Shown here: in pieces, positions 25,724 through 26,392 of the stretch
Layout: every line of letters begins with the position of its first letter
How positions within the stretch are numbered: the stretch's first letter is position 1
Sequence record: PQ249395
Source of the DNA: Escherichia phage Pu-Krd-SF1
Direction: 5' to 3' (one strand)
Length of the DNA stretch: 64,000 bases
Program-made: the position numbers and the translations under genes
The notes under the pieces: model-generated
Databases searched by the model: none
Told to the model about the DNA's origin: nothing
What the model saw: only the letters and a program-made list of their open reading frames with translations

Positions 25724-26392
25724 AATTATGCCTTACTAAATTTGCCTTTAGAATCTCTTTTCATGAGACGACCTTTAATAAATCCATCGGGAATAATACC
25801 GTCTGGTTATATTAATTTATTTATTGCACCATTATTGACCCAAAAAGTTCCTGTTGTAGTCGGTTTGACTTTACATCCTTTTCTGGACTTTCTATTAGGA
25901 TGAACCATCCCTTTTACAAATCCTTCTGGAACAAGTTCTCCAGGTTTAATAAAAATATTTTTAGTTCCATTAGTGTAACAAGTTGTACCTAATACCGTGC
26001 CCGGTGAGTTTTCAAATCTCTTAGCAGAAGATTCTTTCATCTTTGCTATAACCTCTGTAGTCATAACAATTCCACCAATTCCACCAGGTTTCATATTATA
26101 ATAATTTTTGCTTTTTATTATTTCAGGAGTTATAATTTCTTCTTCATACATGTACGCTTCTTCGGAAGTTTTAAACTCTTTTAGTATTGTTCTAGAGAAA
26201 TTGTTTTCACCATATTTCTTTATAGCCTGCTGAATTGCTTTACCGGAACCAAGGTAACCATCATTCAAGTCATCAGTAGAGTGTTTTCCTATATACTTTT
26301 TACCATTTATTAGATTTGTTGTTTCATATACAAAGTGGTACATACTATTTTCCGAGTAATAAATATATCTATATTTATACTGAGGAAATATT
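25724..26392 (-). mobile_element. Homing-endonuclease (GIY-YIG, SegE-like) gene between inh and uvsW
   Basis: GIY-YIG ORF plus in-frame post-stop extension fill the whole intergenic space. Confidence 0.6.
25807..26343 (-). CDS. GIY-YIG homing endonuclease (SegE-like)
   Basis: 178 aa; N-terminal YHFVYETTNLINGKKYIGKH...GYLGSG; TAA stop is followed by 26 in-frame sense codons up to uvsW start. Confidence 0.75.
   Translation of the reverse strand: MYHFVYETTNLINGKKYIGKHSTDDLNDGYLGSGKAIQQAIKKYGENNFSRTILKEFKTSEEAYMYEEEIITPEIIKSKNYYNMKPGGIGGIVMTTEVIAKMKESSAKRFENSPGTVLGTTCYTNGTKNIFIKPGELVPEGFVKGMVHPNRKSRKGCKVKPTTTGTFWVNNGAINKLI

Follow-up and report, generated by a model that had tools for sequence, protein, structure and literature searches.

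A recent nonsense codon in segE of a T4-like phage and the likely early decay of a homing endonuclease gene

In the 64,000-nt stretch of Escherichia phage Pu-Krd-SF1 (PQ249395) that we analysed, hereafter the window, a GIY-YIG endonuclease reading frame ends at a stop codon, and the same frame then stays open almost to the start of the neighbouring helicase gene. The frame (25807..26343, minus strand) begins with an ATG at 26343 and the peptide MYHFVYETTNLINGKKYIGKH, comprises 178 codons and is closed by the ochre codon TAA at 25807..25809. There follow 26 in-frame sense codons (PDGIIPDGFIKGRLMKRDSKGKFSKA), a second TAA at 25728..25726, the dinucleotide TT and the ATG of uvsW at 25723. A preliminary description of this DNA had reported the reading frame, the stop and the post-stop frame, and every one of its coordinates and peptides was correct when we read the sequence again. 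The question raised by the locus is whether it encodes a short endonuclease in its own right, a longer protein made by read-through, or the remains of a longer gene. Our analysis points to the last of these: segE, a free-standing GIY-YIG homing endonuclease gene that carries a recent nonsense change, CAA to TAA, at codon 179 and is likely an early-stage pseudogene, a reading to which we assign a probability of roughly 0.78.

The window belongs to a Tequatrovirus, a T4-like phage. A megablast search with the region matched 507 phage records, nearly all of them Tequatrovirus of Escherichia, Shigella, Yersinia and Salmonella, and in the matched records the three genes are annotated as inh, segE (homing endonuclease) and uvsW. 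In T4 (NC_000866; NP_049795), RB14 and Escherichia phage Pu-Krd-SF6, segE is a gene of 618 nt encoding 205 amino acids that ends 2 nt before uvsW. In a four-way alignment the window segE DNA is 99% identical to these three genes and, as in the relatives, the gene is free-standing, lies between inh and uvsW and has the orientation of uvsW. The conserved GIY-YIG residues (Tyr, Tyr-x-Gly, Glu and Asn) are all present in the encoded protein. The earlier naming of the gene as SegE-like is thus upheld by both its identity to T4 segE and its position. SegE itself is described as an experimentally characterized GIY-YIG homing endonuclease that cleaves the inh(hoc.1)/uvsW junction of relatives lacking segE and has a homing efficiency of almost 100% (PMC2330249 and PMC2988022, both citing Kadyrov et al. 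1997), and an intact segE is reported to be needed for homing (PMC2330249, citing Kadyrov 1997).

Comparison with the closest relative, Pu-Krd-SF6, reveals how the stop arose. The window aligns with positions 32059..96058 of that genome over 64 kb without a gap and with 59 substitutions, only one of which falls in segE: a G to A change at plus-strand position 25809, that is, C to T on the coding strand, which produces Q179*. At the position of the window's TAA, all three relatives in the four-way alignment read CAA (Gln). Since this is the only change in segE, the post-stop codons are the unchanged last 26 codons of the gene; the untranslated remnant (25726..25806, minus strand; codons 180-205 and the original TAA) matches Pu-Krd-SF6 base for base and differs from T4 and RB14 at one synonymous site. 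The proposal that the gene once encoded about 205 residues is therefore borne out by the 618-nt genes of T4, RB14 and Pu-Krd-SF6, and its truncation can be traced to a single base across the whole gene. Homologues that ended at the same residue would have argued against truncation, and all close homologues extend past the site. The complete 205-residue frame with its conserved C-terminal module is not encoded here, with G187, G191 and R192 left untranslated. Judged by its sequence, the locus is segE by descent, but no complete SegE is encoded.

What the stop removes becomes apparent from the organization of the C-terminal half. The preliminary description had noted an internal repeat, and the repeat is real: residues 116-160 and 161-205 align with a BLOSUM62 local score of 71, compared with 20.4 +/- 4.2 for shuffled sequences, none of 5000 of which reached 71. 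Residues 116-145 (TVLGTTCYTNGTKNIFIKPGELVPEGFVKG; module 1, 25909..25998, minus strand, intact) align with residues 162-191 (TTTGTFWVNNGAINKLIQPDGIIPDGFIKG). The similarity of the post-stop peptide to the upstream protein likewise persists in a proper alignment (score 44 against 21.9 +/- 3.9, with 0 of 5000 shuffles reaching 44). The second copy, however, does not start after the stop, as had been described, but approximately 17 residues 5' of it (TTTGTFWVNNGAINKLI|Q|PDGIIPDGFIKG), and the stop therefore falls midway through module 2 (residues 162-192, TTTGTFWVNNGAINKLI-Q/stop-PDGIIPDGFIKGR; 25768..25860, minus strand).

A search with the 205-residue SegE returned 1412 homologues, of which 51 and then 64 full-length sequences, at 31-67% identity, were aligned. 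The terminal module is carried by all homologues at 33-67% identity, and among the 64 it is the sole conserved feature of the C-terminal half, with the form G-x-x-W-x-x-N-G-x-x-N-K-x-I-...-I-P-x-G-[WF]-x-x-G-R. G191 is invariant, and G165, W168, G172, G187 and R192 are conserved in at least 90% of the 64 sequences. Three of these residues, G187, G191 and R192, lie 3' of the stop, which thereby removes the PxG[FW]xxGR end, the part of the C-terminus that is best conserved in the family. Module 1 is found in the closest SegE subfamily only, and in more distant homologues its place is taken by NUMOD3-type sequence (PF07460). Neither the 205- nor the 178-residue SegE matches NUMOD3 (Pfam PF07460) at E <= 1, and we found no Pfam family for the repeated module; its sole named link is to PHROG phrog_10820, an HNH endonuclease family, covering residues 154-199. 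When the six frames of the whole window were scanned with a regular expression for the module, no copies came up beyond the pair in segE. The AlphaFold prediction for the 205-residue protein (mean pLDDT 86) assigns residues 1-90 to the GIY-YIG domain, 96-112 to a helix and 121-132 to a beta-hairpin in module 1, while module 2 is modelled as a hairpin (167-178; strands 167-170 and 175-178) and a short strand near 189-190. In this model the stop at 179 falls directly after the predicted second hairpin, and the last short strand would be lost.

The stop allele is rare. An 81-mer around the stop has no 100% match in 50,697 phage records, in which the best matches carry exactly one mismatch, and the exact 178-residue protein is absent from a collection of approximately 15 billion proteins. 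The 205-residue SegE occurs on 126 contigs of that collection; the members of its 72-member 90% cluster are 205 residues long except for fragments, most of which are partial frames on contigs of 795-1820 bp. Both metagenome contigs (2/2) that contain the surrounding 36-mer have CAA. Exact-pattern scans of IMG/VR found neither the mutant nor the wild-type 38-mer, and that collection is therefore uninformative about allele frequency. Across the phage records, the protein collection and the metagenome contigs, then, the Q179* allele looks private, and it looks recent because the post-stop remnant is unchanged. The gene as a whole is far from universal: it is present in full or nearly so (at least 80% of a 901-nt query) in only 157 of the 507 matching phage records, and the sympatric phage Pu-Krd-SF4 lacks it. 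On this basis, segE is a mobile gene that is dispensable to the phage. Another truncated allele is found in a deposited phage T4 record (QZB89790.1), which encodes a SegE of 125 residues with changes around a GGIGG stretch, and disrupted segE alleles are therefore not unique to the window.

Several other explanations for the stop deserve consideration. One is that the phage truly carries CAA and that the T was miscalled in sequencing or assembly; the difference is a single base, it is absent from every other record searched, and one assembled sequence cannot tell a real mutation from a base-call error. Yet the 64-kb comparison with Pu-Krd-SF6 shows the window to be free of indels, and its five isolated substitutions (gp48 R248G, segE Q179*, gp7 V882F and synonymous changes in gp18 and gp6) disrupt no gene other than segE. 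Furthermore, nonsense changes make up approximately 4.8% of all possible substitutions in segE and 0.8% of transitions (5/615), so that a random miscall would rarely create a stop, an argument that is weakened because the locus was chosen for its stop. The change also sits in an optional gene, where tolerated nonsense mutations are expected, and we consider an error improbable. Far less probable still is read-through of the stop, which the preliminary description had offered as its alternative; the suppression could be programmed or leaky and would leave the phage with some complete SegE. It is true that the ancestral codon specifies Gln, so that a near-cognate Gln-tRNA misreading UAA would restore the exact wild-type protein, and that the lineage has a second CAA to TAA stop in another optional gene. 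However, of the stop codons UAA gives the most efficient termination in E. coli, and the stop is private, being absent from all relatives examined, rather than conserved as would be expected of programmed or suppressor-dependent read-through. Nor does the window contain a tRNA gene, and the tRNA cluster of Pu-Krd-SF6 includes neither an ochre suppressor (UUA anticodon) nor a tRNA-Gln. Given that only 5 of the 615 segE transitions are nonsense and that, in these AT-rich genes, CAA to TAA is one of the very few ways for a transition to make a stop, two such events need no special mechanism, and we found no support for the read-through alternative.

Two observations adjoin this argument. The Pu-Krd-SF6 cluster (1339..3342 of that genome, outside the window) has eight tRNAs, tRNA-Leu (UAA), Gly (UCC), Pro (UGG), Ser (UGA), Thr (UGU), Met/Ile (CAU), Tyr (GUA) and Arg (UCU). 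An HNH endonuclease gene immediately precedes tRNA-Leu, and tRNA-Tyr and tRNA-Arg have a homing endonuclease gene between them. The second premature stop is in a 754-bp optional insert (37366..38119, minus strand) between the tail sheath gene 18 and the tail tube gene 19, which is present in 68 of 501 matching records. In Salmonella phage pSe_SNUABM_01 the insert holds one intact frame of 185 codons (phrog_5104, with a weak hint of a treble-clef zinc finger), of which codon 73 is TAA instead of CAA (stop at 37816..37814) in the window and, identically, in Pu-Krd-SF5, Pu-Krd-SF6 and Pu-Krd-SF7.

If the codon is real and terminates translation, the 178-residue protein might still be an active endonuclease, perhaps weaker or with relaxed target recognition. 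Its GIY-YIG catalytic domain (residues 1-90; 26074..26343, minus strand), linker and module 1 are intact, and modular GIY-YIG enzymes such as I-TevI tolerate the loss of some DNA-binding subdomains, with reduced affinity. We nonetheless regard this as about as improbable as a sequencing error, given that the strongest C-terminal conservation in the family falls in the lost segment, that module 1 is less well conserved than module 2 and is replaced in most homologues, and that the remaining half module may misfold. We found no deletion analysis of the SegE C-terminus in the literature. Conservation, the predicted structure and the analogy with I-TevI together suggest that the 178-residue product is probably unable to bind its target; with half of the conserved module gone, target recognition should be impaired or abolished.

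We therefore return to segE as a gene in early decay, for which the following course of events seems plausible. The late promoter upstream would still drive synthesis of the catalytic domain, the linker helix and module 1, but part of the region that holds the target, by analogy with I-TevI, would be lost. At the inh/uvsW junction of genomes that lack segE, the 178-residue SegE probably cleaves very poorly or not at all, and segE in this phage would then be an early-stage pseudogene of a selfish element dispensable to its phage. The promoter in question is the only exact match to the late-promoter consensus (TATAAATA; 26372..26379, minus strand), 5' of segE at the same site as a late promoter predicted in the annotation of Yersinia phage fPS-2.

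A review describes a promoter for the downstream gene that is embedded in segE (PMC2988022), which our promoter scan did not locate. The nearest candidate, AATAAATA at 25825..25818, matches at 7 of 8 positions and is 9 nt upstream of the mutated base, and a consensus scan found no sigma-70-like promoter created by the C to T change. The uvsW gene (24215..25723), encoding a 502-residue helicase, is identical to that of Pu-Krd-SF6, and its translation start (25721..25735, minus strand; a TAAGG Shine-Dalgarno sequence, a 7-nt spacer and the ATG) is unchanged. Because both of these translation signals of its own are retained, we expect uvsW to be unaffected. At the other end of uvsW, between it and uvsW.1, lies the gene for a 230-residue HNH endonuclease with NUMOD3 motifs (23526..24218, minus strand; PF07460, E 7.6e-14; phrog_655), which overlaps the uvsW stop codon by 4 nt and is present in Pu-Krd-SF6 and absent from T4 and RB14.

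The other differences from Pu-Krd-SF6 are concentrated on the far side of segE. A single 934-bp stretch (26440..27373; inh codons 16-219 and hoc codons 12-97) contains 54 of the 59 substitutions, most of them synonymous, and its segE-proximal edge is 97 nt 5' of the segE start codon. In a three-way comparison with Pu-Krd-SF4, which comes from the same source, the window has the Pu-Krd-SF4 base at 46 of the 54 sites, and to either side of the patch its bases are those of Pu-Krd-SF6. The window is therefore best described as a Pu-Krd-SF6-type genome with an imported Pu-Krd-SF4-type patch that ends at the segE insertion. An active SegE would cut segE-less genomes at the inh/uvsW junction and exclude the adjacent markers from the progeny, and it is conceivable, if rather unlikely, that Pu-Krd-SF4-type markers next to segE survive here because the Q179* enzyme no longer excludes them. 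If true, this would be a case from nature in which the death of a homing endonuclease lifts marker exclusion. The causal order may have been the opposite, with a break made by SegE stimulating local recombination before segE was inactivated, or the patch may be related only to the break in homology at the segE insertion.

Two further features of this neighbourhood may be mentioned. The first approximately 40 codons of uvsW (25599..25736) are densely diverged between the segE-carrying genomes (the window and Pu-Krd-SF6) and the segE-less Pu-Krd-SF4, and only 2 sites differ from Pu-Krd-SF4 in the rest of the compared uvsW segment; because the literature places the SegE target in the diverged region, the divergence may reflect immunity of the target site. 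The head-decoration protein Hoc (27083..28501, plus strand) has 472 residues in the window, Pu-Krd-SF6 and Pu-Krd-SF4, compared with 376 in T4 and RB14, and it seems likely, given the repeated Ig-like segments in the sequence, that it carries one extra domain.

In practical terms, the annotation of the locus should name a segE pseudogene, or a truncated segE allele (Q179*), and should avoid labels such as a novel short endonuclease or a gene expressed by read-through. The window phage and Pu-Krd-SF6 form a natural pair that is one base apart in segE. This pair could be used to investigate the role of the conserved terminal module in Seg-type endonucleases, as well as the influence of SegE on recombination around inh/uvsW in mixed infections with sympatric segE-less phages. 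Apart from this use as a natural single-base mutant, the finding has little significance beyond annotation.

Compared with known systems, the locus is most like that of T4 SegE (NP_049795), with which it shares 99% of its DNA sequence, the position between inh and uvsW, the upstream late promoter and the 2-nt gap to the uvsW ATG; it differs in that T4 has CAA at codon 179 and encodes 205 residues, whereas the window has TAA, encodes 178 residues and lacks the end of the second module. A more distant comparison is with I-TevI, the GIY-YIG intron endonuclease of T4, for which structures exist of the catalytic domain (PDB 1ln0/1mk0) and of the DNA-binding domain (PDB 1i3j), and whose C-terminal region provides target binding according to PMC2330249. 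Unlike I-TevI, SegE has no NUMOD3, zinc-finger or helix-turn-helix match in its C-terminus but two tandem W/Y-x-x-NG...P-x-G-F-x-K-G modules that are predicted to form small beta units, and its profile match to the DNA-binding domain in 1i3j is marginal only (E 0.08). At the level of gene fate, homing endonuclease genes reportedly pass through a life cycle of invasion, fixation and degeneration, in the model of Goddard and Burt. The window segE resembles that cycle in being a selfish, dispensable nuclease gene with a probably inactivating point mutation in an otherwise intact host genome, but it stands at the very first step, with one base changed and a remnant free of further decay. Known biology already accounts for the case, an ordinary one in which a mobile nuclease gene is starting to decay.
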